Assembly (NCBI GenBank): GCA_019240835.1
Contig: JAFAXQ010000246.1
Coordinates: 1-61,070 of the forward strand
Length of the DNA: 61,070 bases
Origin: Ktedonobacteraceae bacterium
GTDB lineage: Bacteria; Chloroflexota; Ktedonobacteria; Ktedonobacterales; Ktedonobacteraceae
Direction of reading: 5' to 3'
The notes beneath the pieces were generated by a model. The model saw only the letters and a list, made by a program, of their open reading frames with translations. It was not told the DNA's origin and made no database searches. Made by a program: the position numbers and the translations under genes. This document shows, in pieces, positions 10,379 through 61,070 of the stretch; within the stretch, counting starts at the first letter, position 1; every line of letters begins with the position of its first letter.

Positions 10379-10424
10379 GTGGGTAGTGCTCAAAGCCCAC
10401 AAAGTCTCGCTCCTACAATATACA

Positions 10425-10462
10425 CAGAAACGGCACAACGTGTATTTGTAGTGCCGTTTCTG
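10425..10462 (+). terminator. 12-bp stem hairpin after the HTH/TPR gene
   Basis: CAGAAACGGCAC-14 nt-GTGCCGTTTCTG read directly; no clear U-tract. Confidence 0.45.
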
Positions 10463-10665
10463 CGTATATTATGCTGTCAATCCCTTGGGGCACCTCGCTA
10501 TCCCCAGCACAATGGCGGTACAAACGTGGTAAACTGATGTTGTACTTTTATCCTTTTTCTGCGTTTACTACATAGTAGGGGCGGGCTTGAGCTCCGCCCT
10601 GGTAGAGGCTGGCCTCGCTCTGGTAGGTAGGGGCCGCCGCAGGTGACCAGAAAGGCAACATAGCC

Positions 10666-11466: not shown

Positions 11467-11469
11467 GTA

Positions 11470-12990
11470 ATGTCACTGATTCTTATCGGAGTCGTTACAT
11501 TAGTCGCTGTCGTTTTTATTCTGCTTAGAATTGTCGGTAGTCTGTTACGTAAAGTTGGACCCAATCAGGCCCTCATCGTCTACGGTGCGGGTGGCACAAA
11601 AGTGATTACTGGAGGCTCGCACTTTGTGCTTCCTCTCTACCAGCGCGCACAGGATTTCTCACTTGAGTTGATGTCCTTTGACGTGGCACCACCGCAGGAT
11701 CTCTATACCACTCAGGGGGTTGCGGTCAATGTCGAAGCTGTCACGCAGATCAAAGTGCGTTCGGATGAACAGAGCATCAGAACCGCTGCCGAACAATTTT
11801 TGAGCAAAACGCAGGACGACCGTGAGAACCTGATCCGCTTAGTCATGGAGGGTCATCTGCGCGGTATCGTTGGGCAGCTCACTGTCGAAGAGCTGGTCAA
11901 AGACCCTGAAAACGTCGGCTCGAAGATGTTGCGCACCGTCACAGCGGATATGGAGAAGATGGGGCTAGAAGTCATCTCCTTCACCATTAAAGATGTACGT
12001 GACAGAAACGACTACATCACGAACATGGGCCGTCCGCAGATTGCCTCTATCCGCAAGGAGGCCGATATCGCTGCAGCACTAGCCCAGCGCGATACGCAGA
12101 TTCAGCAAGCTAACGCCTCACGCGAGGCATCGGTATCCAAAGCGCGGGCCGATCAGGAGCGCGTCAAGGCTGAGACGGAATCGCTGGCCCTGCAGGCTGA
12201 GTCACAGCGTAACCTGTCGTTGAAGAGAGCAGAGTTTGATGCTGAAGTGAAGAAACAACAGGCCACAGCCGACAAAGCCTATGACATCCAGTCAAACTCT
12301 GTACAGCAGCAAGTCGTCGCCGAGCAGGTGAAAGTCACCGAAGTGGAGAAGCAGGCACAGATTAAGGTGCAGCAGGCTGAGATCCAGCGCCGTGAACTGG
12401 AACTGCAGGCCACTGTTCAAAAGGGGGCGGAAGCTGAGCGCCGCCGCATCGAGACAGTGGCAGAAGCTGAGCGCCAGCGCCTCATTCTCGAAGCTCAAGG
12501 TCAAGCCGATGCAGCTAAGGCACGTGGTCTTGGTGACGCTGAAGCGAACCGGGCACGTGGCCTAGCCGAAGCCGAGATCACCCGTGCCCGTGGTTTAGCC
12601 CAAGCCGAAGTTATTCTCGCTCAGGGCCGTGCAGAAGCCGAGGCCATGAAAATCAAGGCCGCTGCCTACCACGAGTACAATCAGGCGGCTGTACTGGATA
12701 AACTGCTTACTAACATGCCCGAGATCGTGCGTGCCCTTGCCCAGCCACTGAGCAAGGTTGATAAGGTAACGATTGTCTCTACTGGTGACAGTAGTAACAA
12801 TGGCATGGGGGCGAGTCGTATTACTAACGACATCATGAACATGGCAGCCCAGGTTCCCGCTCTCTTTGAATTACTCAGCGGTACGACTGTCGGTGACCTC
12901 ATCAACCGTATTCCCGCGTTGTCTGACAACCAGAATAGTGAGAACGGCACCAAGGCATCCGGCACGAATAATACTGTAGACAACAAGTAG
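11470..12990 (+). CDS. Flotillin-like SPFH/band-7 protein
   Basis: N-terminal TM, SPFH domain, then long Glu/Ala-rich repeats (AEAERRRIETVAEAERQRL..., ARGLAEAEITRARGLAQAE). AGGAGGAA SD. Confidence 0.85.
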   Translation: MSLILIGVVTLVAVVFILLRIVGSLLRKVGPNQALIVYGAGGTKVITGGSHFVLPLYQRAQDFSLELMSFDVAPPQDLYTTQGVAVNVEAVTQIKVRSDEQSIRTAAEQFLSKTQDDRENLIRLVMEGHLRGIVGQLTVEELVKDPENVGSKMLRTVTADMEKMGLEVISFTIKDVRDRNDYITNMGRPQIASIRKEADIAAALAQRDTQIQQANASREASVSKARADQERVKAETESLALQAESQRNLSLKRAEFDAEVKKQQATADKAYDIQSNSVQQQVVAEQVKVTEVEKQAQIKVQQAEIQRRELELQATVQKGAEAERRRIETVAEAERQRLILEAQGQADAAKARGLGDAEANRARGLAEAEITRARGLAQAEVILAQGRAEAEAMKIKAAAYHEYNQAAVLDKLLTNMPEIVRALAQPLSKVDKVTIVSTGDSSNNGMGASRITNDIMNMAAQVPALFELLSGTTVGDLINRIPALSDNQNSENGTKASGTNNTVDNK

Positions 12991-43147: not shown

Positions 43148-44734
43148 ATGACAGTCATACTTGATGGAGTCAATCTGAAACTGCTAGACATTCTGAGAAT
43201 CGCCCAAGACCGTGTTCCTTGTGAGATTCCCAGCAGTGTTATGATGAAGGTTACACATTCACGCCGCTTGTTCGAAGATATCGCCTCACAAAATATCCCG
43301 ATTTATGGTGTCACCACGGGTTATGGAGAAATGGTGTATATGCTCGTGGAAGCAGACAAAGAAAGCGAACTGCAATCCAACTTGGTACGCAGCCATTGCG
43401 CCGGTGTTGGACCACATTTCAGTGTAGAAGAAGCAAGAGCCATGCTAGCCGCACGTGTCAACGCGTTAGCTCGTGGATATTCCGCTGTCAGACCGGAGTT
43501 GATCAAACGGATGCTGCTGTATCTTAATGCAGACATTATACCGATTATCCCTGAAATCGGATCTTTAGGCGCAAGTGGAGACTTGGCTCCACTTTCCCAT
43601 ATAGCCATTACGCTGATGGGGGAGGGGTACGTCTTCCACCACGGACGGAAAACACCGACCAAGGAAGTGTTACAAGAACGTGGGATCACTCCACTGCAAC
43701 TCAAGTTTAAAGAGGGGCTAGCTCTCATCAACGGTACTTCCGCCATGACGGGGTTGGGCGCATTGGTTGTCTATAAAGGGCTAGAGCAGGTCAGACAAGC
43801 TGAAATCGTGTCTGCTTTAGTTCTACAGACACAAAGAGCATCGAGTAGCCCATTTCTTGCGGAAGGACATGAGCTTGCACGTCCGCACGAAGGGCAAATG
43901 AATTGTGCATACAATTTACGTCTATTAACTCAAGACAGTCAACTGATGAAGCCACACGAAGACCTACGCGCTGAGGCGTTGCATCAGAAATCTGAAACCA
44001 CTCAGGTGCATCGAACCAATGTCTACCTTCAGAAAGCATACACTCTGCGCTGTATTCCCCAGATACTTGGGGCTGTGCGCGATACATTGTCCCACGCAGA
44101 AAATACTCTAGAGATAGAATTGAATTCCTCCAATGACAATCCATTATTCTTTGAAGGGCAGGAGATCTTCCATGGAGGGAATTTCCATGGACAACCTGTT
44201 GCTTTTGTTCTCGATTTTGCTACGGTTGCCTTGACTCAACTTGGTGTCGTTTCTGAACGACGAACCAATCGTCTATTAAATCGTCATCTGAGTAATGGAC
44301 TGCCTGAATTTTTGGTGAAAAGCACCCCTGGCTTAAACAGTGGTTTTGCTGGCACACAATATACTGCGACAGCTTTGGTCGCTGAGAACCGTACGATTGG
44401 ACCTGCAAGTATTCAAAGTATTCCATCTAATGGAGATAACCAGGATGTGGTGAGTATGGGACTGATCGCCGCACGCAATGCTAGACGCGTGCTGACCAAC
44501 AACAACTATATTCTGGCAGTGGAATATCTGTCCGCTGCACAGGCAGTAGATATTGCTCAGTGCTACGATCGCCTGAGTAAGGCTGGAAAAATTACCTACA
44601 AAACAGTCCGCTCTCTTGCTGCAACATTGGACCAAGACCGAGATATGAGCGAGGACATTGAAGCTGTCGCCAGAGCTCTGTCGAGAGGCGAATTTTTAAA
44701 GGTTGTTGAGGAGGCAGAGATCCGGCTGATGTAA
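43148..44734 (+). CDS. MIO-dependent aromatic/histidine ammonia-lyase or aminomutase
   Basis: [14 protein letters not shown] (Ala-Ser-Gly MIO triad). [11 protein letters not shown] carries S-H at the specificity-switch position. Confidence 0.85.
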
Positions 44735-44822
44735 AATTAGAAACTGCTCTAGCATCGTTTATCGGAGTGCGAACTTACCTACAGACACAGCAAGACTTGA
44801 CTCTAAGGAGGCAAATACACAC

Positions 44823-46394
44823 ATGGCTACGACCCAGGATGGCTCTCCAGCAAGAGAGCAGACTGCAATCCGTCCTTTCACAGGAGCAGAGTATTTGGAG
44901 AGCTTACGCGATGGCCGTGAGGTCTGGATCTATGGAGAGCGGGTGAAAGATATCACCAGCCACCCGGCTTTTCGCAACAGCGCACGCATGCTTGCTCGGC
45001 TTTACGATGCTCTGCACGATCCTGCCAAGCGCGACGTACTCACGACCGCGACTGATACTGGCAGTGGTGGCTACACCCACAAGTTCTTTCGAACTTCCAG
45101 AAGCGCAGAGGAGCTCGTCGGTGCTCGTGATGCCATTGCTGAGTGGACACGGATGACCTATGGCTGGATGGGGCGTACTCCCGATTACAAGGCTAGCTTT
45201 CTTGCGACCCTCGATGCCAATGCCGAGTTTTATACTCCCTACCAGGCGAACGCCCACCGCTGCTACAAAGAAGCTCAGGAGAAAGTGCTCTACTTCAACC
45301 ATACTATTGTCAATCCCCCGGTCGACCGTAGCCTCCCACCAGAGCAGGTGGGCGATGTGTACCTCCATGCCGAGAAAGAAACAGACGCGGGCATTGTGGT
45401 AAGTGGGGCCAAGGTCGTGGCGACTGGCTCAGCTCTGACCCACTACAATTTCGTTGCCCATCATGGGCTACCCATCAAAAAGAAGGAGTTTGCCATCATC
45501 TGTACCGTTCCCATGGACGCTCGTGGGGTGAAGCTGATCTCGCGTGCGTCCTATGAGATGACCGCAGCAGTCATGGGTAGCCCCTTCGATTACCCGCTCT
45601 CCAGTCGTCTAGACGAGAATGACGCCATATTCGTTTTTGACAAGGTGCTCATTCCATGGGAAAACGTCTTCGTGTACGGGGACTTGGACAAGGTCAATAC
45701 CTTCTTTCCAATGTCCGGCTTCATTCCCCGCTTCACCTTGCAAGGCTGTGTGCGTCTCGCGGTAAAGTTGGACTTTATCGCTGGGCTTTTCCTGAAAGCT
45801 GTAGAGGCGACTGGAGCCAAGGACTTCCGTGGCGTGCAGGTGCGCATCGGTGAAGTGTTGGCATGGCGAAACCTATTCTGGGCACTTACCGATGCCATGG
45901 CTCGCACACCTACTCCCTGGAATAATGGAGCAGTGCTTCCTAATCTCGACTATGGCATGGTCTATCGCGTGTTCGCCACGGTCGCCTACCCGCGTATCAA
46001 GGAGATCATCGAAAACGATGTTGCCAGTGGGTTGATCTACTTAAACTCCAACGCCGTGGATTTCAAGTCGCCGGAGATTCGCCCCTACTTGGAGAGGTAC
46101 GTGCGGGGATCCAATGGGTACACAGCGGTGGATCGGGTCAAGCTCATGAAGCTACTCTGGGAGGCGATTGGGACTGAATTTGGGAGCAGGCATGAACTGT
46201 ATGAGCGCAACTACGCGGGCAACCATGAGGACATCCGGCTCGAAGTCCTCCAAGCAGCCATGGCACTCGGTCAGGTCAATCAGTACAAGGGTTTCGCCGA
46301 GCAGTGCTTGGCCGAGTACGACCTAGATGGCTGGACGGTGCCGGATCTCATCAACCCGGATGATGTTAATGTACATATGAGGAAGTTCAAGTAG
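44823..46394 (+). CDS. HpaB-family two-component flavin-dependent aromatic hydroxylase (oxygenase component)
   Basis: N-terminus [34 protein letters not shown] and the length typical of 4-hydroxyphenylacetate 3-monooxygenase. AAGGAGG SD. Confidence 0.8.
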
Positions 46395-46469
46395 GCGCTA
46401 CGCGCACGTCGGTAGACCAGTAGCAACGACGGGAGGGGAGGAGCGCGCACGGCCTCTAAGGAGCAACGT

Positions 46470-46958
46470 GTGGAGCCACAAGTTTTTCGTCAGGTCATTG
46501 GCCACTTCGCCAGTGGCGTCACGGTGATCACAGCACGTGAGCACGGCACCAACTACGGCCTGACAGCCAGCGCTGTGAGCTCACTCACGCTTGAACCGCC
46601 GATGCTGCTGGTCTGTATCAACAAGAATACTGGCACACAAGCCGCCATCAGCCGCACCCGCGTCTTTGCCGTCAACATTTTGAATGAAGGTCAGGCCGAC
46701 CTTGCCTACAAATTTGCGAAACCGCAGTCTGACAAGTTTCAAGGCGTCGAATTCTGCTACGGTCAATTCGGTGAACCGCTGCTAGCTGGCGCATTAGCTC
46801 ACATTGAATGCCGCGTTGTCACCGACGTTGAGGCTGGAACACACCGAGTCTTTCTGGCAGAGGTTGACCAAGCCAAATCCTATGTTGGCTCACCGCTGAT
46901 CTACTTCCGTGGCAAGTTTGGGTACTTTGATCAGGCTGAGAGGCTGTATGAAAGTTAA
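46470..46958 (+). CDS. NAD(P)H-flavin reductase (HpaC-like small component)
   Basis: FRQVIGHFASGVTVITA flavin-reductase-domain pattern. GTG start with an AAGGAG SD 7 nt upstream. Confidence 0.8.
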   Translation: MEPQVFRQVIGHFASGVTVITAREHGTNYGLTASAVSSLTLEPPMLLVCINKNTGTQAAISRTRVFAVNILNEGQADLAYKFAKPQSDKFQGVEFCYGQFGEPLLAGALAHIECRVVTDVEAGTHRVFLAEVDQAKSYVGSPLIYFRGKFGYFDQAERLYES

Positions 46959-46972
46959 CAGGAAAATACCCT

Positions 46973-47374
46973 ATGTTCGAGCAGACTATACAAAGGTACT
47001 TTCAAGCTCTGGAAACTTCTGATTATGATGGATTAATGGAGCTGTTTGCTCCCGAGGCAGTGGTTTTTTCTCCCTTGTATGGAGAAAGAAAAGCAGTGGA
47101 GTTCTATCAGGAACTCTTCAAAGACACCGCCTCCTCGAAGATCACCTTGTTGCGTGTCTTTGAGAGTGGAACGACTGGAGCCGTCCTTTTTCGCTATGAT
47201 TGGGTTCTCAAAAATGGAACTTCTACGTTTTTTGAATGCGTTGATATTCTCGAGTTCTCGCAGGGAAAAATACAGAGCCTAAAAATCATTTATGATACCT
47301 CTCCCGTTCATATTCTCCTCAGCACCTCGAAGCCCAGTACAGTGGAGGGGACTGCTGGCGAGGTGGCTGCCTAA
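46973..47374 (+). CDS. NTF2/SnoaL-like small protein
   Basis: YFQALETSDYDGLMELFAPEAVVFSP is the typical SnoaL-like opening; 133 aa. Confidence 0.6.
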   Translation: MFEQTIQRYFQALETSDYDGLMELFAPEAVVFSPLYGERKAVEFYQELFKDTASSKITLLRVFESGTTGAVLFRYDWVLKNGTSTFFECVDILEFSQGKIQSLKIIYDTSPVHILLSTSKPSTVEGTAGEVAA

Positions 47375-47469
47375 TGCTACATCCGCTGTCGGGAGCTTGA
47401 GCATGTTGTTCCTTGAGGAAGCTCGTTTTTAGCTGACCGCGCCGATCCCGTCCATCGGCTGCTACTGGC

Positions 47470-49062
47470 TCAGGCTCCGTTCGCGGGCGGAATGCTTTGT
47501 GCGAAATGGAAAAAATTGTTGGGGTCATAGACAGCCTTGACATGCTGCAGCCGTGGCAGATTAGTGCCATAATACGCGTGCTGCCAGTCGGCCAGATCTG
47601 GATCAATGTAGTTCTGGTATGCCTGCCCGCTGGCGTACGGGCGCATTGACTGCCACGTCTCGGTCAGCCAGGAGCGATTCGCTGCGGCGATGGAAGCAGG
47701 GTCGCTCGCGTTCCAGCCTGCCGTGTACTGGGTGGAGAACAGCGCGTTGCGGTGTACAAAAGCTGTCGCGTCGGCGGCCACGCGGTTGATCGCGCCGCCA
47801 TTCGCATCGAGCAAGATGCCGCCCGCACCTAGCGTGGAGGCTTGGCGGCGAGTGATCGCGCTCACCAAGGCGTCGATACCCTGGCGCGGCAGAGCGTGGG
47901 TGAAGTAGTCGGACTTGGCAGCGGAGGTATCTCGCTGCAACTGGCCTTGTGGATTCTGGCTGGGCAAGTGGCATTGAGCCACGGTCTTACCAGAACAGCC
48001 TGCCTCGGTCAGCATAGTATCAAGCAGGTTGTTAGCCCCTACGAAGCGGCTTGTGGGTGCTGTGCTGATGCGGCTGGTCAGCCGTTGCAGTAGCGGGTTC
48101 AGGGCTGCAACAGTGCCTACATAGACGCCGTTCAGGCGCACGATTGGAGCGGAGCGCTTGTCGTTGGTGGCCAAGAGTAGGCAGTTGGACCACAGCTCAT
48201 CAGGCATCACAGGTGCCCAGCCCTGCCAGGCATCGACCACAGCAGCAGCGCTACTCCACGGCCAGTCCAGCGTGAACAGTGACAACGTGGAGACCGGGTG
48301 TGCTCGGAATGTGAACGAAGTGACCACGCCGAAGTTGCCACCGCCACCGCCACGCAGTGCCCAGAATAGGTCAGAATGGTGGCTCGCGTCGCAAGTGAGC
48401 ACGCGGCCATCGGCTAGGACAACCTGTGCCGCGAGCAGATTGTCACAGGTCAGGCCGAACTTGCGACCCAGCACACCAACTCCACCCCCAAGGGTTAGGC
48501 CAGCGATGCCCACTGTCGGGCAGGAGCCAGCGGGCAGTGTCAGCCCCTGCTGCGCAAGCGTCGCGTAAACGTCGATCAGTCGTGCCCCCGCTCCCACCGT
48601 AGCGGTGACAGTGCTCCTATTCACTGTCACCGCACTCATACGGGTCACATCTAGCACCAAGCCAGTAGTCGTCGAATAGCCAGCGTAGGAGTGGCCACCG
48701 CCGCGAGGTGCCAGGGGCAAAGTGAAGCGTTGCGCGAAGGCGAGGCACTTCTGGACATCCGCAGGCGAGGCGCAGTAGGCAATTGCGGCTGGCAGAATAC
48801 CGTCAAAGCGCGTGCTAAAGAGTTGGTGTGCAGTCGGGTACTGTGGACTATTCGGTCGGACTAGCGTCCCCCGCAGGCTTCTGGCGAGCGCCGCCCAGTC
48901 GGCGTCGCTGGGTGATGGTCCCTTGGAAGGGCTTGACGTCGCACTGGCGGAACTTGACTGCCCATTCTGGCAGGCGGACAGCAGCCCTGGCAACGCTGTT
49001 AGGGCGCAGAGTGCTAGAAACTCACGGCGTTTTATCTGTTGTGGTGGAATAGTGTCTGTCAT
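47470..49062 (-). CDS. Secreted (Tat signal plus lipobox) FAD-linked oxidase with BBE domain
   Basis: KRREFLAL twin-arginine motif and LLSAC lipobox. GGGHSYAG and GSCPTVGIAGLTLGGG are bicovalent-FAD-type His/Cys contexts. C-terminal YQNYID...YDPNNFF BBE motif. Confidence 0.8.
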   Translation of the reverse strand: MTDTIPPQQIKRREFLALCALTALPGLLSACQNGQSSSASATSSPSKGPSPSDADWAALARSLRGTLVRPNSPQYPTAHQLFSTRFDGILPAAIAYCASPADVQKCLAFAQRFTLPLAPRGGGHSYAGYSTTTGLVLDVTRMSAVTVNRSTVTATVGAGARLIDVYATLAQQGLTLPAGSCPTVGIAGLTLGGGVGVLGRKFGLTCDNLLAAQVVLADGRVLTCDASHHSDLFWALRGGGGGNFGVVTSFTFRAHPVSTLSLFTLDWPWSSAAAVVDAWQGWAPVMPDELWSNCLLLATNDKRSAPIVRLNGVYVGTVAALNPLLQRLTSRISTAPTSRFVGANNLLDTMLTEAGCSGKTVAQCHLPSQNPQGQLQRDTSAAKSDYFTHALPRQGIDALVSAITRRQASTLGAGGILLDANGGAINRVAADATAFVHRNALFSTQYTAGWNASDPASIAAANRSWLTETWQSMRPYASGQAYQNYIDPDLADWQHAYYGTNLPRLQHVKAVYDPNNFFHFAQSIPPANGA

Positions 49063-49211
49063 AGGTTGTACGAATTGTATTCTACAACTTTTCTTGTGTT
49101 TGGAGACATCATAGCATGTCGTACTAGTGATAGCAACTCACCATTTACTTTGTCAGAAATAGCTTTTGCTTCAAGTCACCTCACCTAGCATTTGTTGTAT
49201 GATCTCAATCG

Positions 49212-49613
49212 TCATCGCCCAGGTGCTGATCCTGGCTCTCTCAGTGTTCTATGATCGATCCCTGCTAGCTCTACCAAGCTGATGTTATCTGCGGCTTGCC
49301 TAGGGGCGGCTGCGTATGTCTGACTGAGCGTAAGAGGCACATGGGGATCCTCGGTTCCATGAAGAAGCACTTGCCAGACTCCTAGTGGCAGCAGTGCAGC
49401 CGGAGAGGCAAGAGCAGAGCGTGCGGGAACCTCATCGAAACTGCCACCCAGGAATGCGGAGACAACGCCATTGCCCACGTTCGGCCGCCATGCTAGCTCC
49501 AGATCAGGTAGCCCTGCAAGGCTGCATTGCTCTGGCGCTGTTCCATAGGCATGTCGTACGGGAGGAGTTTTTGCTGGGTGAGTCGGCACCCTTTCATTTT
49601 GTCCCGAACCCAT
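49212..49613 (-). pseudogene. Probable remnant (C-terminal part only) of an alpha/beta hydrolase/peptidase
   Basis: Only the LLHGTEDPHVP...GIDH C-terminal catalytic Asp/His region is present. There is no nucleophile region or credible N-terminus. Confidence 0.4.
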
Positions 49614-49663
49614 AGTGTTTCCTCATCTCTATGTGGGGAAACGATTCCTGTACGAAAGCGCCG

Positions 49664-51877
49664 TCACATGTCAACAAACACATCTGCCAGCCTCATGATC
49701 CGCTGCTCGTCAGGCCAAGTTTCACGAGCTTTTCTCCAGACAGTGACCGCTTCCTGCCGCCGCTTCTCGCTTCCCAACGCCTTGGCTCCTGCGACTCCTG
49801 CTAGCAGATAGTGTTCAAATTCCTCCATATTGCCTGCTCCAACCGCCGCTGCCGCCTGGTGGTTGATGATCTCAATACGAAGACGCTCAGGGACGACGAT
49901 GGGTCTAGGAAGCTGGTCAACTTGTGCGAGCTTGCTTGCAGCTTCTTGGTAGCGATCATAGGCACGCGACGGGTTATCGTACCTCTCTTCATGATTCGCT
50001 AGAGCAAGGTTGCTCAGTCCTTCAAACAAAATCACCTGAAAGAGACCATAATCCGTCGAGAGGAATACAGGAATTTCTCTGACTACCTCTGGGAAAATGG
50101 CCCGTGCCTCGCTGATCGAACAAAGTGCTTGCTGGACTTTCCCATTTTGTGCATAGCCGTGAGCCAACTCAGCATATGCCTTGCTCCGCACGAGGAGCGG
50201 TAGAGTATCGTCTCTCTCCTTCACATCACTGTAGAGGAGTGCTTGTTGGCAAGTCTGTAACATTTCCGCTCGTTGTCCATTAGTGTAGAACGCATCTCCG
50301 AGATGAGTAAGAGCTGTGACGAGCAGGGTTTGATCTCCTGCTACATGAGCATACTCCACTGCTTGTTTACAGCAAGCCACTCGTTCAAAGAAACGAAGTC
50401 GATGCAGAGCCACTAAACCCAATAGCAAGTACCCTTGAGCGGCAAGGTAGGCGCTTTTTTGTTTATAGGTAGGAAGTTGTTGGATCAACGCGGTCAGCAC
50501 GGGTAAATACTTAGGCAGTACATACTCGACAGTAGATAATCCATCTCCCCGGAGTAGGTGCCAGCACGCCGTGATGCTGGCGCTACATTGGGCCAGAAAC
50601 TCTTCCAGGAGCAGGGCGGTGAGAGGTCCCGCTTGCACTTTGGTCAGCAGGGCAGCAGAGACCGTCGCCAGCGTCGTAAGAGCCAGGCGTCGCCCTAGCA
50701 GCACGTCACTGCTCGTCTTGCCAGCCTGATCGCTCATGGTGTTCCATCTCTCTATCTGCTCGTGCAGCAGGGCTTGCACGTGGGAACAAGCGAGCTGCTG
50801 TTCTTGCCAGCCAGCCAGCACTCCCTTCAGCACGTCGACCTGCTCACTGAACCAGCTTGGCCAATCGCACACCTCCACACGTCGTGGCGAGGGGTCGAGC
50901 ACCAGATGGGCAGGCACCAGCACTCCGCTTTCTGCTGGCAACAACGGTTCTTGTCCTATTATACTAGCATGCTCAAGCGCACTATGCTCTCCCCGAACAC
51001 GTCGCCGCGTGATCTGTTTGGCGCGCAAATACTCCGCGATCTCCTGCGTGCGTGCATCAGGATCGCGCCCCTCTTCTTGCAATGCTTCAAGGGCCTGTTG
51101 ATAGCACGCTTCCGCCTCCTGGTAGCGCTCCTGCTCTCCCAGCAGTTCCAGCAACGGGCGCAACGCATCCTCATCAGTGGGATGGGCCTGCCAGTAGGTG
51201 TGCAATCGCAGTTCTGCCAGGGCATGATGCCCGTGCTGGCGGTAGAGAGTAGCCAGCCGATGCACACACTGCCGATGCTGCCCCTCTAGACGCGCACGCC
51301 GTGGCATGGCCCACGGGCTATAGCGTTCCTCGACCAGATACGTGCCCCGTGCGGCTAGCTGAGAGGCGACTTCCCACAGCGACAGCGCCTCCTCGCCAAA
51401 GCGCTCCAGGCGTGCAGCCTGCTCGACATTCCACGTAAATGCATCGGCATCCACCCAGATGTGCGGATAGGCCGCCAATTGGTAGCCGTTGCCATTGGCG
51501 GGGGTGCCTTGCCTGAGCAGCAGGACGTGTGTGCTGCCGGGTGGGCGCAACAGTTTGCGTAGGGCGTAGACCACATTATCCAGGCGTTTGGCAGCCGCTG
51601 TGCTACTGACTTCAGGCCAGAAGTGCTCCATGATCTCATCGCGCAGAGCGAAGCGATGGGGTTGGCTCAGCAGCAGTTTGAGCAGCCAGAGGGCAGCGGT
51701 GGCATCCTTGATAGCCAGGTGCTCTTCGCAGAGAGCGTTAGCGCAGCCGCGTTGCTGGTCAATCCACTCGATGTGCAGTGGCCCAAAGGTGTAGATGCGG
51801 ATGTGCGTGGGGCTGGCACGGTCAGGCTGGGCATGGGGAACTGGGGGGTGTGGCGTGGCGGTGTAGTCTGACTGCAT
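49664..51877 (-). CDS. SARP-family regulator (OmpR-type wHTH plus BTAD plus TPR-like C-terminal region)
   Basis: IRIYTFGPLHIEW..., BTAD helices (ALSLWEVA...RLATLYRQHGHHALAE...YQQALEAL), and a long helical-repeat tail. Start moved to MQSDY (51877) with a GGAAGGAA SD. Confidence 0.75.
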   Translation of the reverse strand: MQSDYTATPHPPVPHAQPDRASPTHIRIYTFGPLHIEWIDQQRGCANALCEEHLAIKDATAALWLLKLLLSQPHRFALRDEIMEHFWPEVSSTAAAKRLDNVVYALRKLLRPPGSTHVLLLRQGTPANGNGYQLAAYPHIWVDADAFTWNVEQAARLERFGEEALSLWEVASQLAARGTYLVEERYSPWAMPRRARLEGQHRQCVHRLATLYRQHGHHALAELRLHTYWQAHPTDEDALRPLLELLGEQERYQEAEACYQQALEALQEEGRDPDARTQEIAEYLRAKQITRRRVRGEHSALEHASIIGQEPLLPAESGVLVPAHLVLDPSPRRVEVCDWPSWFSEQVDVLKGVLAGWQEQQLACSHVQALLHEQIERWNTMSDQAGKTSSDVLLGRRLALTTLATVSAALLTKVQAGPLTALLLEEFLAQCSASITACWHLLRGDGLSTVEYVLPKYLPVLTALIQQLPTYKQKSAYLAAQGYLLLGLVALHRLRFFERVACCKQAVEYAHVAGDQTLLVTALTHLGDAFYTNGQRAEMLQTCQQALLYSDVKERDDTLPLLVRSKAYAELAHGYAQNGKVQQALCSISEARAIFPEVVREIPVFLSTDYGLFQVILFEGLSNLALANHEERYDNPSRAYDRYQEAASKLAQVDQLPRPIVVPERLRIEIINHQAAAAVGAGNMEEFEHYLLAGVAGAKALGSEKRRQEAVTVWRKARETWPDEQRIMRLADVFVDM

Positions 51878-51970
51878 AGCTAGTTCCTTCCGAGCAAGCA
51901 AGGTTACTGACTCTTGCTGACGTGCAGTATAGCACATCTTTGCTGCTTATGCTAGTGGCTCATGAATTTC

Positions 51971-53318: not shown

Positions 53319-54659
53319 TCATAGCGAGGGAAGAGGCTTGCGTCTTCGCGCTTCAAACCAGTTGAAGAGGTAGGCAAGCGTTACGAGTACGAAAAAAGCA
53401 TTGCGCACACTTACTGCTTGAATAAAGCCCGGCACGAGTGGAATAAGCAGCAAATCAACCGGACGGGTGTAGAGATACAAAATAAAGGTGGTGAGGAGCG
53501 AGATGCTACCCCATGCGAATAGCCAGAAAGCGTCAAAAGCACCGACATAGGCGAGCAGTGGAATAATCCAGATCAGATATTGTAGGCTAAAGACTTTTCC
53601 TGTAGCTATGAAGACGAGCAAAAGCGCAATGCTGACTTGTGCGATATCAAGGCGGCCTCGCCATTGCATCCACAGCGTATAAGCATACCCTATGATGAAG
53701 AGAAGCCCGCTTAGAAGTGAAACAAAACCAGCTAATTTACTACTAATGTTGAGCGAACCATACGTATAGGTAATCTGCAGCGGAACACCGAAGTGCATTG
53801 CCAGCCAGAGAAAAGTACTGCCAGTGGCTTCAACTTGTATGGGTCGCTGCACAAAATAGTTCAATTGATCGAGAACTGCTCCTTGAAAATTGAGCAGGGC
53901 GAATGCTCCTGTAACTGCTAATAGCATACCTAAAAAGAGCAACAGATTTTTCCAGTACCAGTCAAAGGCACCACGGAAAGTGAGCCAGAGATCGTGCGGA
54001 ATTGATGTTAGGGAAATGCTTGTAGGAGGTGTATAGAAACGTCCTCGCTCCTGCTGCTCTGCGATAAAAAGTGAGGGAAGAAGTAGGATAGGGTACAGCT
54101 TAAAGAGCACTGCGAAGGCGAGGGCTATGTAGGCCCAAGCCCAGCGCCTTTGTTCTGCTGCGATGATAAAGAGCAGTGTCAGCAAGGCTGGAATTAAATC
54201 GAAACGTATCTGTACTGTTGCTAGCGCCCCGATGAAGATGTACAGCACGAATATCAGCGCGGCCCCACGTGGCCCGTAACGTAACAATAGCCAGTAGATC
54301 AGGGCTGATGTAAGCGCCATGAGCAAGACAAATGCCATCTGATAATTGAGTAGGGGTGCCAGCAGTGCTAGCGAGAACAGTAATAGCGTAAGTGGTGGGT
54401 ATTCTAGTGGCAGCATATGGAATGCTGGCTGTGGTTGCGCAATGTGCAAGAATGCACATTGCGCTGGAGGAAGTAGGTGTGTTGCATCGCTGCCGAGCCA
54501 GAAGGTCAATGCGTAACATTGGTAGCGTGCTGGATCGGTTCTTGGTAAAAAGATTTGCCACGCGGAACTGCAGAAGGCAGCGATTGTCAGGAGAGTAATG
54601 GGAATATATGTTACGGTACCACTTCGTGCTAGCAAGGCATTCCACTTATCTCTCAACAA
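53319..54659 (-). CDS. Polytopic membrane protein, GT-C/DUF2029-like (possible glycosyltransferase)
   Basis: At least 10 hydrophobic segments and the length typical of DUF2029/GT87-like proteins, judged by pattern only. The start overlaps the NACHT gene stop by 14 nt. Confidence 0.45.
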   Translation of the reverse strand: MLRDKWNALLARSGTVTYIPITLLTIAAFCSSAWQIFLPRTDPARYQCYALTFWLGSDATHLLPPAQCAFLHIAQPQPAFHMLPLEYPPLTLLLFSLALLAPLLNYQMAFVLLMALTSALIYWLLLRYGPRGAALIFVLYIFIGALATVQIRFDLIPALLTLLFIIAAEQRRWAWAYIALAFAVLFKLYPILLLPSLFIAEQQERGRFYTPPTSISLTSIPHDLWLTFRGAFDWYWKNLLLFLGMLLAVTGAFALLNFQGAVLDQLNYFVQRPIQVEATGSTFLWLAMHFGVPLQITYTYGSLNISSKLAGFVSLLSGLLFIIGYAYTLWMQWRGRLDIAQVSIALLLVFIATGKVFSLQYLIWIIPLLAYVGAFDAFWLFAWGSISLLTTFILYLYTRPVDLLLIPLVPGFIQAVSVRNAFFVLVTLAYLFNWFEARRRKPLPSL

Positions 54660-57336
54660 CTGAGTCCTCCATCACACTTTGGACTGTGCTGAGGGAGGCG
54701 AGGTACTCAAGCAGCAAGTGGTGGATAAAGACGTAGCCTCCTCCTACCTTACGCAGCAGCAGTCGCTCACTGGCTTCATCCAGAAAGTGCGCATAGTTCC
54801 AGGGAGTATATCCCTTACCTGTGAGAATTACGCGCAAGACCATGTGTTGTAGGCATGCGTACCCCCCGTTGAGTAGGAAGAGGATCAAGGTGGCAATCAG
54901 ACCCAGGGGGACCGACCACAACAGTCCAGATGCAAGATCGGTAGGGATCAGCCAAAAAGAGAGCGCGAGGCTCAAACCAGTGAAGGCTAGGCCAATAGGA
55001 AATCCGATGAGAACGCCATTGCGTGCAGAAAGTCGGATGCCTTCATTCGGCCTGATATGGGTACGGTCTTCCAACAAGCGCCGCGACAATCCACCGAGCC
55101 ACCATCCTATGGCTGCACCAGCCAGTCCGCCGATGAAACCGCTAGTGAGCAGATGCATCTGCCACAAAGCAAAATTGAGGTAGACTTCATAGCCCAGCCC
55201 CACCGTTCCTCCCACCAGCATCCCAAGGAATCCTCCAAGCAACGAGATCGTCACCCGCCGTCGGATAGGTACTGCCGACCAGACGAGCGCCTCGACGGGT
55301 TGGATCTGTGTTTCTCGACCACCAACTAGGGTACCAGCCAGCCCTCCGATGAGTACTGCGGTCAATCCATAACTCAGTTCTTCTACGACCTGATTGTAGA
55401 CGCTAGAAGAGAGTGGACAAGGCACCCAGAGCAGATTGATCAGTACAAAGATTAACCCAAAGCTCAAGCCAAGCAGTGAGGTGATCACTCGTCGTTGGAT
55501 AGGTATTGCCGACCAGAAGCCAGTCTCGATAGACTTCATCCGTGTGTCTCTGTGGCCAAATAAACCACCAATCGATCCTCCCAGTAGCCCAAACCCCAGT
55601 CCGTAGGTGAGTCCGACAATTGAGAAGGGCAGGAAAAAGGCCAGCAGTTGTGCTCTTGTGCCAAATACTGGCAAGCCGTATGCGCATTGCGATGCTGTCA
55701 CGGCCGTGTGGGTCAAGAGCGCAAAAAGTTGGGCGTGGACAACCTCATACAGGGGGACATCGGCAAGCATAGCTGTTAGGCCTGCCAGCACCCCCACGAG
55801 CAGGCCTATGAACAGTCGACAGTACCATCGAAAAGCTCGAGGCTCCAAGAGCCAATTGGGTTGCATGCTCTCGATGTAGAACTCGGTCTGCTGCTGCCGC
55901 ACTAACTGCCGTGCCAGCCAGGCTAGGTAGCGCAGGGTTTGCGCTGCTGTATAGCAACTCTGGTTGCTCCGACGGGTGAGCAGCATATGCCTAACGTAGA
56001 CCGCAAAGACCTGGTGGCGTCGGGCCTGCAAGGAAAGCGGCTGTGGGAACGCATCGACCGTTTTGCCCTGGTAGGTCAGTGCCAGCATGCTCAACATCAG
56101 CGGGTTGCTCGCCAAATCGCGCAAGGCTGGATCCGCATGCAATGCCTGCTCTAATGCTGCTAGTTGCTCCCCGGCACTAGCCAGATACGCCTCAACCTGC
56201 TCGGAGGTGAGCGGTTGCACCACGACAGCGCGAGAGAGCAAAAGCCGTGCTGGCTGTGCGAAATACTCGTCCTGCCGACAGCACACCACTAGGGGTAGGA
56301 ACCCATGCTCCTGTCGATAGGCGTTGATGGTCTCGATACAGGCACTGCGACAGGTAGGTCTCACCTCGTCCAGACCGTCAAGCAGGGGTAAGATCTGCTC
56401 GGTCTGTATCCAGAACTGCGCCAGCTTGCGAGGAACCTGGTACTTGCTGTGCAGTTCCTCCTCTAACCAATCGCTCAGTGAGCATTGCTTCTGAGCCCAG
56501 GAGGACAGATTGAAGACGACAGGGATGGGATGGGTTTCATCCCGGTCCGCTCGGTCGAGTAGATTGCGAGCTAGCTCCAATAAGAGCGTCGTCTTGCCCA
56601 AACCAGGCTCCCCAAGAATGAGCAATTCGCCATTGATAGCATCGTAGACTTGACTGAGATCGGTACCCGGGGGCAAGGGCTGAGCGATCTGCTTGGGCTG
56701 ATACACGTGCCAGGGATTGGCTACTGCGTCGGCTCGCTCCTGCAATCCCAGGGCTATAAGAGGTGCCCCGTGTAAGGACTGCTCTAACACCCCGCTGATC
56801 CAGAAGGTACGCACTTTCCTGACCATCCGCTGACGATTCTGTTGGCTCATCGGAGCAGGTCCTAGCTGGGCTACCGATGTGGGTAGGTCCGCAACCAAGG
56901 AAGGCGACAGCTTGGCCAGGGAGTTCAAGGAGCCGATGGCTTGGCCGTTCGCGGAGCAGTCTATGCTGCTGAACAGGGCAGGACGCTGATCCGCTTCTCC
57001 CACTTGAGCGCTCCTAGTCTGCCCAGCAGTCTCTTGCTGTTGTCCAGGGATGGGGGGCGGCATGCTCTCCTGCTCAATAGAGCAGGGGAGCAACCCAAGC
57101 TCCTGGGCATCAAGGTCAAAAACGTCACACAGTGCGTGGCGATAGCGGGGACTAGGAAAGGAAATGCCACGTTCCCAGCGAGCGACAGTGCGGGGATCAG
57201 GCTCACCGGGACCGAAATCCGGCAGGCGGCTTATGCGTGTTGCAACCTCTTCAAGTGTCCAGAAACGCAGCTCCCGTTCCTGTTTCAACTTCTGATTTGG
57301 CTTCCCTTTTTTCTTTGGATAAGTCTGCTCTTTCAT
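54646..57336 (-). CDS. STAND NTPase: XRE-like HTH plus NACHT plus repeated multi-TM C-terminal region
   Basis: HTH (WTLEEVATRISRL...RTVARWERG), Walker A GEPGLGKTTLL, Walker B LLDGLDEV. Repeated TM modules (IETGFWSAIPIQRRVITSLLG and VEALVWSAVPIRRRVTISLLG) and a C-terminal FLDEASERLLLRKVGGGYVFIHHLLLEYLA. The ORF track extends to 57453, but that extension is made of an intergenic-looking repeat. Confidence 0.8.
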   Translation of the reverse strand: MKEQTYPKKKGKPNQKLKQERELRFWTLEEVATRISRLPDFGPGEPDPRTVARWERGISFPSPRYRHALCDVFDLDAQELGLLPCSIEQESMPPPIPGQQQETAGQTRSAQVGEADQRPALFSSIDCSANGQAIGSLNSLAKLSPSLVADLPTSVAQLGPAPMSQQNRQRMVRKVRTFWISGVLEQSLHGAPLIALGLQERADAVANPWHVYQPKQIAQPLPPGTDLSQVYDAINGELLILGEPGLGKTTLLLELARNLLDRADRDETHPIPVVFNLSSWAQKQCSLSDWLEEELHSKYQVPRKLAQFWIQTEQILPLLDGLDEVRPTCRSACIETINAYRQEHGFLPLVVCCRQDEYFAQPARLLLSRAVVVQPLTSEQVEAYLASAGEQLAALEQALHADPALRDLASNPLMLSMLALTYQGKTVDAFPQPLSLQARRHQVFAVYVRHMLLTRRSNQSCYTAAQTLRYLAWLARQLVRQQQTEFYIESMQPNWLLEPRAFRWYCRLFIGLLVGVLAGLTAMLADVPLYEVVHAQLFALLTHTAVTASQCAYGLPVFGTRAQLLAFFLPFSIVGLTYGLGFGLLGGSIGGLFGHRDTRMKSIETGFWSAIPIQRRVITSLLGLSFGLIFVLINLLWVPCPLSSSVYNQVVEELSYGLTAVLIGGLAGTLVGGRETQIQPVEALVWSAVPIRRRVTISLLGGFLGMLVGGTVGLGYEVYLNFALWQMHLLTSGFIGGLAGAAIGWWLGGLSRRLLEDRTHIRPNEGIRLSARNGVLIGFPIGLAFTGLSLALSFWLIPTDLASGLLWSVPLGLIATLILFLLNGGYACLQHMVLRVILTGKGYTPWNYAHFLDEASERLLLRKVGGGYVFIHHLLLEYLASLSTVQSVMEDSVVER

Positions 57337-57392
57337 CTCTTCAATTGCCTTCTTTTTAGCTTTAAGCTGCCACTTGCACTCTCTTCCCTGAA

Positions 57393-57506
57393 GGGGAATG
57401 AGAGTTGAGTAGGGCGGTTCGCACATATATAAACAATCTTTGCCATCCCTCATTATACGTATTCGGGGAATGAGAGTTAGGTAGGGCGTTCACACATGGA
57501 TAAACG
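57393..57506. repeat. Two copies of a 42-43-bp direct repeat, 72 bp apart
   Basis: GGGGAATGAGAGTTGAGTAGGGCGGTTCGCACATATATAAACA (57393-57435) versus GGGGAATGAGAGTTAGGTAGGGCGTTCACACATGGATAAACG (57465-57506). Confidence 0.85.
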
Positions 57507-57592: not shown

Positions 57593-57805
57593 ACAAATGT
57601 CATTCAACTGCCAGGGATGGTCCATGTATGCTTCCAGTGTCGAGACGATCCATGGTAGCCTTTGGAAAAACCAAGGCGTTTCAGGCCAAATTGGTCTAAC
57701 CACCAATGGACAGTTTACCTACCTAAATTTTGTACAACTTAGTGACACCTTGTTACTAATTTTGCAGGACTGTTTAGGTAGAAGTGATTGATTTAAGGAG
57801 AAAAG

Positions 57806-58003
57806 ATGAACACCGATTCTGGAGCTAACATTAACGACAGCAACAATCCTTTCAAGCTTGATGTACGCATTTTCCCCTCACACGACATTAGTCATGCTCA
57901 TGCAGCGGTGAAGCCTGCATCACCCGCGACGTGCCAGACGTGTCGAGAAAGCCAGTGTAGCTGGAGCGTCATCACTACTTGTTGGTCTTGTTCTGCCTGT
58001 TAG
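57806..58003 (+). CDS. lanA: Class I lanthipeptide precursor peptide
   Basis: AAGGAG SD. The leader has an F-K-L-D (FNLD-type) box. The C-terminal 24 aa TCQTCRESQCSWSVITTCWSCSAC carry 6 Cys and 9 Ser/Thr. lanC and lanB follow directly. Confidence 0.85.
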   Translation: MNTDSGANINDSNNPFKLDVRIFPSHDISHAHAAVKPASPATCQTCRESQCSWSVITTCWSCSAC

Positions 58004-58036
58004 CGTAGATAGACTTAGTAGTATCCCTGAGGTGAA

Positions 58037-58070
58037 TATGAAGCATGCTTAGAACTGAGTATGCTTCATA
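58037..58070 (+). terminator. Stem-loop between lanA and lanC (possible partial terminator or processing site)
   Basis: TATGAAGCAT-14 nt-ATGCTTCATA; no U-tract. Confidence 0.4.
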
Positions 58071-58098
58071 CCTCCTACCGTAGAGGACGGTTGTTTCT

Positions 58099-59484
58099 AT
58101 GTCTGAGAGAGTTCACCCAAAATATGCAGATTCTTTCATTGTTTGTCCTGCAGATACTAGAGAACCTATTTGGCATGCTATGGTCCCCTCCGTACTGCGG
58201 CAACGAGCCTTGGCGAACATACAAGTTATCGCTGAACGTTTGCAAAATCCTGAGTATATCCTGACCGTAGTAGAAAAGGCAAAAAAGCAGTCTCGGCTTT
58301 TTCATTGGGGGGGTGCTCTCTTCTCTAATAGCTTTGCAAGCGTTGCGCAATTCTATCTCTACCTGACACGTTGCCTTTCAGAACAGGCTTGGGAAGAACA
58401 TGCGCACAAATACCTACGTCTAGCGGCTCAGAGTACCCATCATTATCCGTTAGAAAAGCTTGGGCTATTTGATGGTAGTAGTGGCTTTGCATTGATTCTC
58501 TCTGCTTTCAGTGAACACGAGCCGCGCTATCATGAGACATACAATGAAGTCCAGGAGGAAATAGCAAGGCAAGTGCTGGCACGAAGGTGGAAGCGTCGTT
58601 ATTCAAGCGTAGAGGCGAGCGACTATGATGTCATGTCAGGTGTTTCCGGTATTGTTGGCTACCTTACCTCACTTCGATCTCCCAGTATCCATGTTGAAGA
58701 AGCGATCTTGAAACTCCTGGGCTATCTGATCTGGCTCAGCGACGAAGATCAGCCTGGCCGCAAAAATTGGTTTATTGCACCTGAGCATTTGCCTCTGGAG
58801 AGGTATCGTGAAGAGTACCCTGATGGATATTTGAACGTTGGCCTTTCTCATGGCATTGCTGGTCCCTTGGCTGCTCTTGCGCTGGCTTGGAAGGCCGGTT
58901 ATCGTATTCCTGGTCAGCGCGAAGCTATCGAACGGTTAAGTCAGTGGATCGTCGAACGTCAAGTGCAAGATGAATGGGGTATTAACTGGCCCACTGCGAT
59001 ACCTCTCCAGATGTCGCATAGTCCTGAACAATGGCGGATGCTTCCCTCGGCACGGGCAGCGTGGTGTTACGGCGCACCTGGTATTGCCTCTACCCTGTGG
59101 TTAGCAGGAGCTGCCTTACAGGATACGTCGTTGCATCAGATAGCGTTGCAGGCCCTTGAGACAGTTCTTCAACGTCCCATTGAGCAACGTAATATTAATT
59201 CACCTACAATCTGTCATGGGGTGGCAGGATTACTTGCTATCTGCCTGCGTTTTGCTCATGTATCACAAAGTCAGATCGTGCAAAAGCATATTTCGTTGCT
59301 CACTGAACAGATTTTGGGGGCTTGTCACTCCGATTTGCCACTTACTGTACAGGATCAGGAGAGCAATGGAATCTTTGTCGATGATCCTGGCTTTCTCACT
59401 GGTGCAATCGGTGTGGCATTAGTATTGCTGGCCGTGTGTACATCCGTTGAACCACAATGGAATCGTGCCCTTCTGATTGCGTAA
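58099..59484 (+). CDS. lanC: LanC-type lanthipeptide cyclase
   Basis: GLSHGIAGPL, WCYGAPGIA and ICHGVAGLL, the three LanC signature blocks that include the Zn ligands. Confidence 0.9.
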   Translation: MSERVHPKYADSFIVCPADTREPIWHAMVPSVLRQRALANIQVIAERLQNPEYILTVVEKAKKQSRLFHWGGALFSNSFASVAQFYLYLTRCLSEQAWEEHAHKYLRLAAQSTHHYPLEKLGLFDGSSGFALILSAFSEHEPRYHETYNEVQEEIARQVLARRWKRRYSSVEASDYDVMSGVSGIVGYLTSLRSPSIHVEEAILKLLGYLIWLSDEDQPGRKNWFIAPEHLPLERYREEYPDGYLNVGLSHGIAGPLAALALAWKAGYRIPGQREAIERLSQWIVERQVQDEWGINWPTAIPLQMSHSPEQWRMLPSARAAWCYGAPGIASTLWLAGAALQDTSLHQIALQALETVLQRPIEQRNINSPTICHGVAGLLAICLRFAHVSQSQIVQKHISLLTEQILGACHSDLPLTVQDQESNGIFVDDPGFLTGAIGVALVLLAVCTSVEPQWNRALLIA

Positions 59485-59527
59485 TTGGAAAGAACTGGGC
59501 ATAGAGGCAAAGACTGAGGAAATAGCT

Positions 59528-61070
59528 ATGGCGCAAGAGAAATATATAAATAATAGAGATCGTACGAGAATATATACTGCTGCAGGTTTTTGCCTTGTGC
59601 GTGCTCCTATCTTACCGGTCACTGTCTTTCAACTGATAGCTTCAGGGTCAGCTAAAGATACCACTATGGGGAAAAATCTTCTCACTAATCTTCCAGAAAT
59701 ACAACAGCGGAGTTATGATGTTTTAAGGTCTCTGGCTCCTGATCCATTTGTCACGCAGGCATTACTGGTGGCAAGCACTGACATATTCGAAGGATTGGCC
59801 ACAATTGAGCATGCTACTAGTTCAAATCGTCGTGTTGAGCGTGCATATTCTAGCCTTCTGCGTTATCTGACTAGAATGAGTACCCGTCCAACTCCGTTTG
59901 GCCTGTTTTCGGGCGTTGCGATAGCTACGCTGGGAGAATGTACAACGCTGCAGCTAGGTACACCTGTTGTACAAAGTTTGCGCACGAGACCCGGCATGGA
60001 GTGGCTTTTGTCTCTTATTCAGCAAATAGAGGAAGACAAAGCCTTGGTACCTCATTTGAATGTGGTAGCCAATCAGGCTGTGTATCTGGCTGGAGCACGA
60101 GCTATCCTTCCGTATGCAGACATCTACGGTACAGGTGATTATCGTGAGATTACGCTACGTGCTACACCGGCAGTATATTTTGTCATGGAGAACGCTCGTG
60201 CTCCAATTGCCTATAGTGAGCTAAAGAACGACCTTCTAGACACTTTTCCTCAGGCGGCCGAGCAGCAGGTTGAAGGCTTGTTGCAGCAGTTATGGGAGCA
60301 TCACTTCTTGATGAGCAATTTGCGTCCACCATTGACTAGTGCAGAACCCGAAGTTTGTGTTCTGGAGCAGTTGCGTAACAATCCTGCCTTAGCATCTTTT
60401 GCTTCCAGACTTGAGGAAGTGATTGAGCTAGAGAGGACGATTGATCATACTCCTATCGGCCAGGCCACGGCAAGTATATATCAAATGGTGGAGCGACAGA
60501 AACAGCTTGTGCCTGCGTCAGGAAGATCGCCCTTTCAAATTGACATGGGACTACATCTGGCACAAGCACAACTTAATAGAGAGGTAGGTGAGGCAGTCAT
60601 AGACGCGATTGAGGCACTGCTACGTATCTCACCACCACTCCAAGGTAGGCATCACTTGCAAGAGTACCTTACGGCCTTTCAAGAGAGGTATAGTCTAGAT
60701 GCAGAGGTACCCTTACTGGATTTGCTTAGCCCTGAAACTGGCCTAGATGCTCCACCAACCTATACTGAACCGCCTCGTGCTCATCCATTACCTGGTCTGC
60801 CTTTGCCTGATATGCGGGCCAGAGATAGTCTGTTATGTTCACTTCTCTCTGAAGCCTTATATCAACATGTGCAAGAGATTGAGTTAACAGATGAGCTACT
60901 CGAGCGGCTCTCCCAATGGAGGTCGCAAGAAATACCTCCTCCGCCGACGCTGGAAATGTTCCTGCAAATTCATGCGAAATCAAAAGAAGCTATTGATCGG
61001 GGAGAATGGAGAGGAGTCGTCGCTCCTGCCGGTATTGCCTATGGCGGACGTTCTTTTGGGCGTTTTTTCG
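59528..61070 (+). CDS. lanB: LanB-type lanthipeptide dehydratase, N-terminal (glutamylation) part; truncated by the window edge
   Basis: Not in the ORF track because it has no stop in the window. My translation from the ATG at 59528 (GAGGA SD) stays open to 61070. It contains FCLVRAPILP, RMSTRPTPFGLFSGV and GGRSFGRFF, typical LanB N-terminal motifs. Confidence 0.85.
   Translation, partial: MAQEKYINNRDRTRIYTAAGFCLVRAPILPVTVFQLIASGSAKDTTMGKNLLTNLPEIQQRSYDVLRSLAPDPFVTQALLVASTDIFEGLATIEHATSSNRRVERAYSSLLRYLTRMSTRPTPFGLFSGVAIATLGECTTLQLGTPVVQSLRTRPGMEWLLSLIQQIEEDKALVPHLNVVANQAVYLAGARAILPYADIYGTGDYREITLRATPAVYFVMENARAPIAYSELKNDLLDTFPQAAEQQVEGLLQQLWEHHFLMSNLRPPLTSAEPEVCVLEQLRNNPALASFASRLEEVIELERTIDHTPIGQATASIYQMVERQKQLVPASGRSPFQIDMGLHLAQAQLNREVGEAVIDAIEALLRISPPLQGRHHLQEYLTAFQERYSLDAEVPLLDLLSPETGLDAPPTYTEPPRAHPLPGLPLPDMRARDSLLCSLLSEALYQHVQEIELTDELLERLSQWRSQEIPPPPTLEMFLQIHAKSKEAIDRGEWRGVVAPAGIAYGGRSFGRFF

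Follow-up and report, generated by a model that had tools for sequence, protein, structure and literature searches.

A real yet incomplete class I lanthipeptide gene cluster at the contig end of an uncultured Ktedonobacteria-like soil bacterium

The contig JAFAXQ010000246.1 of a Ktedonobacteraceae bacterium (61,070 nt; this whole stretch of analysed DNA is referred to as the window) ends with three genes, lanA, lanC and lanB, which follow each other on the plus strand and encode a lanthipeptide precursor, a lanthionine cyclase and the first part of a dehydratase (Table 1). This 3′ end is very probably the 5′ part of an operon for the biosynthesis of a class I lanthipeptide in a Ktedonobacteria-like member of the Chloroflexota, and the analysis confirmed the locus as a real yet incomplete class I cluster of an uncultured soil bacterium of this kind. 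A sequence-only reading of the same stretch had proposed the order lanA-lanC-lanB, with a 65-aa (amino acid) precursor carrying an FNLD-type leader box, a LanC with all three signature blocks starting less than 100 nt downstream and the N-terminal domain of a LanB dehydratase. The coordinates of the open reading frames (ORFs), the Pfam domains and the key residues agree with this proposal in every part, and all three genes lie on the plus strand at the positions that it gave. The class I rule of RODEO (Walker 2020) asks for a LanC-like protein and a LanB with PF04738 and PF14028 within seven genes; the window itself contains a stand-alone LanC-like protein (PF05147), a PF04738 domain adjoining it and an FxLD precursor with a core rich in Cys and Ser/Thr. 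The scores of the lan proteins against Pfam and known structures are far beyond chance. As the window end is also the contig end (position 61070), the elimination domain of LanB as well as transporter and tailoring genes are out of view.

Table 1. Positions of the lan genes, the intergenic hairpins and the divergent upstream gene in the window.
Feature	Position	Strand	Basis or remark
lanA precursor, 65 aa	57806..58003	+	ORF and ribosome-binding site; orthologue P0002
Stem-loop, 15 bp (13 Watson-Crick and 2 G-U pairs), 4-nt loop	58037..58070	+	lanA-lanC gap
Small terminator-like hairpin with T-run	58077-58091	+	directly 5′ of the lanC start
lanC, lanthionine cyclase, 461 aa	58099..59484	+	Pfam LANC_like; alignment with NisC and 8byk
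lanB, glutamylation domain, first 514 codons, cut by the contig end	59528..61070	+	Pfam Lant_dehydr_N
935-aa protein: XRE-type helix-turn-helix (HTH), NACHT NTPase, multi-pass membrane C-terminus	54646..57453	-	divergent, upstream of lanA

The precursor LanA (MNTDSGANINDSNNPFKLDVRIFPSHDISHAHAAVKPASPATCQTCRESQCSWSVITTCWSCSAC) is preceded by an AAGGAG ribosome-binding site 5 nt upstream of the gene. Its leader comprises approximately residues 1-41 and contains the box F16-K-L-D-V-R-I, with F16-K-L-D19 as the FxLD element. The predicted core (T42-C65, TCQTCRESQCSWSVITTCWSCSAC) consists of the last 24 residues, six of which are Cys and nine Ser or Thr. Cleavage would take place after ASPA, which puts a Pro at position -2 of the leader/core boundary, as in nisin. 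The ring topology of this core is not fixed by sequence alone. A six-frame motif scan of the window yielded this single lanA-like ORF and no second precursor.

LanA has one homologue in the protein database, P0002 (63% identical), whose neighbouring LanC (P0004, HTI14682.1) is annotated as originating from a metagenome-assembled genome (MAG) of a Dictyobacter sp. (locus L005). The two cores are identical in 23 of 24 residues, with Ala23 being replaced by Gln, and their codons differ by ten synonymous changes and one non-synonymous change, which argues for purifying selection on the core peptide. The two leaders, in turn, are only about 45% identical outside the NPF-x-LD-[VI]-RIFP stretch. Such a contrast between core and leader would be expected if a bioactive product were under purifying selection. 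The Dictyobacter locus further resembles the window in its LanC (64% identical) and in a hairpin after lanA, but differs from it in lacking a lanB within 10 kb, in its other flanking genes and in its GC content (42% vs 52%). Gene callers also annotated a 55-aa ORF directly 5′ of lanA (57624-57791), which is probably spurious, as the Dictyobacter locus shows no conservation of this region.

All precursors adjoining related lanC-lanB pairs contain the box F-x-L-D-[VI]-R-[VI], which fits both the recognised class I leader motif FxLD (PMC7268733) and the F(E/D)LD leader logo reported for Ktedonobacteria (PMC6497799). Five precursors with a TTCWSC motif were compared, namely those of the window, the Dictyobacter locus, Thermosporothrix hazakensis (L004), the metagenomic locus L087 and Salinispora tropica CNB536, the last one being a predicted entry in the RODEO supplement. 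The F, L, D and R of the leader box and the complete TTCWSC are invariant in all five of them. In L004, L087 and S. tropica, TTCWSC is located near the predicted core start. In the window and Dictyobacter cores, TCQTCRESQCSW stands before it and only S-x-C comes after it. Compared with L004 and L087, the window core possesses an additional segment, TCQTCRESQC, at its N-terminus and terminates directly behind the TTCWSC module. A full-text literature search for TTCWSC returned no paper, and no characterised lanthipeptide with this core motif was found. The SxxxCTP(G/S)C motif, by which nisin and gallidermin bind lipid II (PMC7268733), is absent from TCQTCRESQCSWSVITTCWSCSAC, as are CTPGC and CTPSC. 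The earlier impression that the core does not resemble any named lantibiotic needs a qualification: the core is no orphan, since predicted, uncharacterised precursors have TTCWSC in common with it.

The gap between lanA and lanC contains two hairpins. The 100-nt intergenic stretch folds with -32.2 kcal/mol (z = -3.6), a stability that was reached by none of 200 shuffled sequences. Comparably strong hairpins without sequence similarity are found 3′ of lanA in L005, L004 and L008, and the hairpin after lanA hence recurs in four loci. In lantibiotic operons the precursor gene is usually followed by such a hairpin, which would adjust the amount of precursor transcript relative to that of the enzyme transcripts. 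The stem-loop of the window may act as an attenuator or as an mRNA stabiliser.

The lanC gene starts 95 nt after the lanA stop codon. Its ATG at position 58099 is preferred over the later TTG start chosen by one gene caller, because Trp25 is conserved. LanC matches the Pfam family LANC_like (PF05147) with an E-value of 2e-55 (188 bits, cut-off 23.2), the clostridial LanC-like structure 8byk with 4e-42 and NisC (2g02) with 4e-28. The three signature blocks read GLSHGIAG with His251, AWCYGAPG with Cys323-Tyr324 and TICHGVAG with Cys372-His373. In the alignment His251 falls on the acid/base His of NisC and Cys323, Cys372 and His373 on its Cys-Cys-His zinc site. In an alignment with 109 homologues, LanC deviates in none of the 47 columns with a conservation of at least 95%.

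The lanB gene begins 43 nt downstream of lanC, and its reading frame runs through 514 codons, with neither stop codon nor frameshift, up to the last base of the window. The encoded part matches Lant_dehydr_N (PF04738) with an E-value of 5.9e-108 over profile positions 2-440 of 649, MibB (5ehk) with 2e-46, 9g04 with 2.9e-45 and NisB (4wd9) with 5e-16. Residues of LanB and NisB were matched by counting along the phmmer alignment, which reproduces the published NisB numbering. Five of the six glutamylation-site residues of NisB (Y80, R83, R87, T89, D121 and D299) are kept, with Y113, R116, R120, T122 and D339 of LanB corresponding to Y80, R83, R87, T89 and D299. The equivalent of D121 is Gly156, a point that the sequence-only reading did not contain. 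Gly156 lies in the sequence RTRPGMEWLL, while the relatives exhibit RPDMxWLL. The position is occupied by Asp in all 70 non-identical relatives as well as in NisB (Asp121), MibB and 9g04. As Gly156 is also present in three other assemblies of the window organism (L001-L003), it is not a sequencing error. Samples that contain the locus are ERZ27313884, JGI 3300021377 and SRR8113281. Among the highly conserved columns of LanB, 34 of 36 are kept, and two deviations are within the range seen among the relatives. The second deviating residue is Ser389 (60692-60694), which is Gly in 68 of 70 relatives. The word-based search for LanB homologues recovered mostly partial sequences and missed the 66% identical LanB of L086, which was reached via LanC.

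A lanC-lanB order with a full-length LanB was found in ten loci (L004, L006-L011, L025, L086 and L087), which are mostly from Ktedonobacteria. Their LanB proteins have 1062-1139 aa and include a Lant_dehydr_C domain, and the elimination domain PF14028 was found in LanB of L004, L086 and L087. The closest locus found, the metagenomic L086 (LanC 64%, LanB 66% identical), consists of lanC, lanB (1098 aa), an ATP-binding cassette (ABC) exporter, a luciferase-like oxidoreductase (LLM) and an HTH/NB-ARC gene. The likewise metagenomic L087 (LanC 57%, LanB 56%) is composed of lanA, lanC, lanB (1098 aa), an ABC exporter and an LLM. In T. hazakensis (L004; LanB 52%) a divergent HTH/NB-ARC gene is followed by lanA, lanC, lanB (1062 aa, with N and C domains), an LLM, an ABC ATPase and an ABC-2 permease. 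By analogy with the closest relatives, lanB would continue for some 580 codons past the window end, and the missing part would also include genes for an ABC exporter and a luciferase-like oxidoreductase. None of the genes in the related loci was recognised as coding for a dedicated leader protease. Their LLMs are MsnO8-family luciferase-like oxidoreductases; LanJC is the name given to LLM-family enzymes that convert dehydro residues into D-amino acids by reduction (PMC7268733), and a LanJC-like reduction by the enzymes of the related loci appears possible. The 18 kb upstream of the lan genes do not contain any transporter, protease or immunity gene.

Contigs that reach beyond position 61070 could not be found, with exact look-ups of LanA and LanC giving three contigs, and the terminal 28-mer of the window was not present in the metagenome contig collection. 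A profile scan of the same collection yielded relatives with at most 53% identity among the matches listed. An independent 10-kb ENA contig (L001), which differs by 2 nt, ends at its position 10058 and thereby at the same lanB base as the window. This shared stop could be due to a branch in the assembly graph, to a repeat or to an insertion.

Several points weigh against an intact operon. The elimination domain, the exporter and the tailoring genes lie outside the visible sequence, and the peptide product is a predicted one. Two assemblies ending at one lanB base leave room for a disruption further downstream. LanB has Gly156 at an otherwise invariant position, in the window as well as in the three further assemblies, and the locus with the closest lanA orthologue (L005) contains lanC, with lanB missing from the 10 kb to each side. 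The shared contig end, Gly156, the L005 locus and the orphan LanC of Ktedonosporobacter rubrisoli would fit a decaying or partly disabled cluster, in which lanB is impaired by the exchange of Asp for Gly and perhaps disrupted past the contig end, and in which LanA stays undehydrated or is served by a second LanB encoded elsewhere. The mutational data on NisB cut both ways. NisB D121A is reported to be devoid of dehydration activity in vitro/E. coli (Garg et al. 2013, as cited in PMC4341554), which would favour decay, but the same variant was close to wild type in the native host Lactococcus lactis (PMC4341554). As the effect of D121A differs between the assay systems, Gly156 is a caveat and not proof of inactivity. 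Against decay also stand the 514 open lanB codons, the conserved columns that LanB retains (including the equivalents of Y80, R83, R87, T89 and D299, with the two deviations being within the range of the relatives), the fully intact LanC and the purifying selection on the core. Decay of the cluster is considered unlikely, and the reading as a class I operon that is cut by the contig end is preferred.

For such an operon, the following course can be derived from the established class I biochemistry of NisB and NisC. The ribosomally made 65-aa LanA would dock on LanB through its FxLD(V/I)R leader box, whereupon LanB would esterify Ser and Thr residues of the 24-aa core using glutamyl-tRNA(Glu). 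The C-terminal domain of LanB, located beyond the window, would then eliminate glutamate, resulting in dehydroalanine and dehydrobutyrine. The zinc of LanC (bound by Cys323, Cys372 and His373, with His251 as acid/base) would activate the six Cys thiols, and their addition to dehydro residues could form up to six thioether rings. The stem-loop after lanA would probably keep lanA transcripts more abundant than lanCB transcripts, and the luciferase-like oxidoreductase that is expected from the relatives might reduce dehydro residues in the manner of LanJC enzymes.

In comparison with nisin-type systems (NisA/NisB/NisC; MibB of microbisporicin), the window shares separate LanB and LanC proteins, the FxLD leader box, the His and Cys-Cys-His zinc site of LanC, the LanB counterparts of NisB Y80, R83, R87, T89 and D299 and the hairpin after the precursor gene. 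It differs from them in its gene order lanA-lanC-lanB, in a core without SxxxCTP(G/S)C, in the Gly of LanB at the position of NisB Asp121 and in that no LanP protease was recognised in its relatives; both enzymes are also distant from those of nisin (E-values of 4e-28 for LanC and 5e-16 for LanB). Closer counterparts are the predicted class I clusters of Ktedonobacteria (PMC6497799; T. hazakensis NZ_QKUF01000004.1, i.e., L004) together with L086 and L087, with which the window has in common the order lanA-lanC-lanB, the F-x-L-D-[VI]-R box, LanC and LanB proteins of 48-64% and 52-66% identity, respectively, and an HTH-family protein nearby. Tikitericin from Thermogemmatispora T81 originates from the same bacterial class and is also a thioether-ring peptide, but its authors associate it with a class II lanthionine synthetase cluster, a different biosynthetic machinery, and describe a leader cleavage site of the double-Gly type (PMC6167946).

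The locus is thus a further example of a well-known system type, with a core sequence that is new but related. The notion that class I lanthipeptides of this group are poorly explored applies to their chemistry, as the literature searched contained no isolated class I lanthipeptide from the phylum of the window, with tikitericin being the isolated lanthipeptide found for Ktedonobacteria. It does not apply to the gene clusters, since a catalogue of 2019 listed 11 class I clusters from nine genomes of Ktedonobacteria (Zheng et al. 2019, PMC6497799) and LanAs of Ktedonobacterales were included in the RODEO data set of 2020 (PMC7268733). A more far-reaching and rather speculative idea is that the TTCWSC module, which occurs in predicted precursors of Chloroflexota and Actinomycetota, represents an uncharacterised scaffold with its own target-binding pharmacophore, having at most six rings in 24 residues and being made by a LanB that works without the invariant Asp (D121 of NisB). 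If the latter was true, the D121-type residue would be dispensable in nature. The natural exchange of Asp for Gly is in any case a small, testable point on the dehydratase mechanism, and the peptide is a reasonable choice for heterologous expression, given that its core is nearly identical in two Ktedonobacteria that are rather distantly related. The general understanding of lanthipeptide biosynthesis is unchanged by this locus, which adds one more uncharacterised member to class I.

The divergently encoded 935-aa protein matches Pfam NACHT with an E-value of 3.6e-10 and HTH_31 with 2.8e-4, the latter being under the curated cut-off. Judged by its adjacency to lanA, the protein may be a cluster-situated regulator; its affiliation with the cluster is uncertain. 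Its HTH resembles the HTH of proteins flanking L004 and L087, and a relative of the L004 protein flanks L086; this similarity may simply reflect a domain that is common in Ktedonobacteria. Unlike the proteins near L004, L086 and L087, the candidate has a NACHT and a membrane domain instead of NB-ARC, and the combination of XRE-HTH, NACHT and membrane domain was not seen among the neighbours of related clusters. The NACHT NTPase gene next to lanA could also hint at a defence island and an intracellular lanthipeptide system against phages ("lanthiphage" type) instead of a secreted antimicrobial, as anti-phage class I clusters exist in Actinobacteria (bioRxiv 10.1101/2024.06.26.600839), but this is highly improbable, given that the family has so far been reported from Actinobacteria only and is defined by the accessory proteins LphD, LphE and LphF (PF14028 and PF01135), mostly without transporters (bioRxiv 10.1101/2024.06.26.600839), while the relatives of the window have ABC exporters and an LLM, no PIMT gene was seen and no PF01135 match is on record among their called genes, the TCQTCRESQCSWSVITTCWSCSAC core has neither Asp nor the TxDxCxxxCxxxC motif present in 57% of lanthiphage cores (bioRxiv 10.1101/2024.06.26.600839), and PADLOC gave no meaningful defence-system match.

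The Ktedonobacteria-like host, which had been guessed from the gene style, is supported by the nearest named relatives of LanC and LanB, namely Dictyobacter sp., Ktedonosporobacter rubrisoli, MAGs of Ktedonobacteraceae and Thermosporothrix hazakensis. The window is chromosomal, as it contains housekeeping genes such as those for cysteinyl-tRNA synthetase and glutamine synthetase. The GC content at third codon positions is 0.39-0.43 in the lan genes and 0.44-0.66 in most other window genes sampled, a weak hint of a horizontal origin. Rfam and tRNA scans of the window yielded no RNA genes.

Some of the related loci exhibit peculiarities of their own. The lanC-lanB-ABC-LLM contig of L086 (1-9621) co-occurs with the L005 locus (10001-11697) in two samples. 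That both are parts of one split locus in Dictyobacter is unproven, as is a common genome, because their GC contents differ (42% for L005 vs 49% for L086). The lanC of L086 (2-1313) is split into ORFs of 384 and 63 aa, by either a frameshift or an assembly error, and is intact (475 aa) in another sample. The orphan LanC of K. rubrisoli (L088, 10001-11392, CP035758.1; 56% identical) adjoins an Rce1-like membrane protease, with neither a lanA-like ORF nor a LanB located within 10 kb. In L006 (7226-8401) and L007 (5529-6743), an ORF of about 400 aa, possibly a transposase, fills the expected place of lanA 5′ of lanC, and no lanA-like ORF was found upstream of lanC in either locus. The LanA of L008 (8102-8296) has a predicted core that consists almost only of Cys, Ser and Thr (SWSCSCTCGCTHSCTCTCSCTCFTCCCTCGC). 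Further upstream in the window (43148-51937), genes for an aromatic amino acid ammonia-lyase, an HpaB-type hydroxylase and a flavin reductase on the plus strand are followed by genes for a BBE-like FAD oxidase and a SARP/BTAD regulator on the minus strand, which together look like a separate small phenylpropanoid-type pathway.

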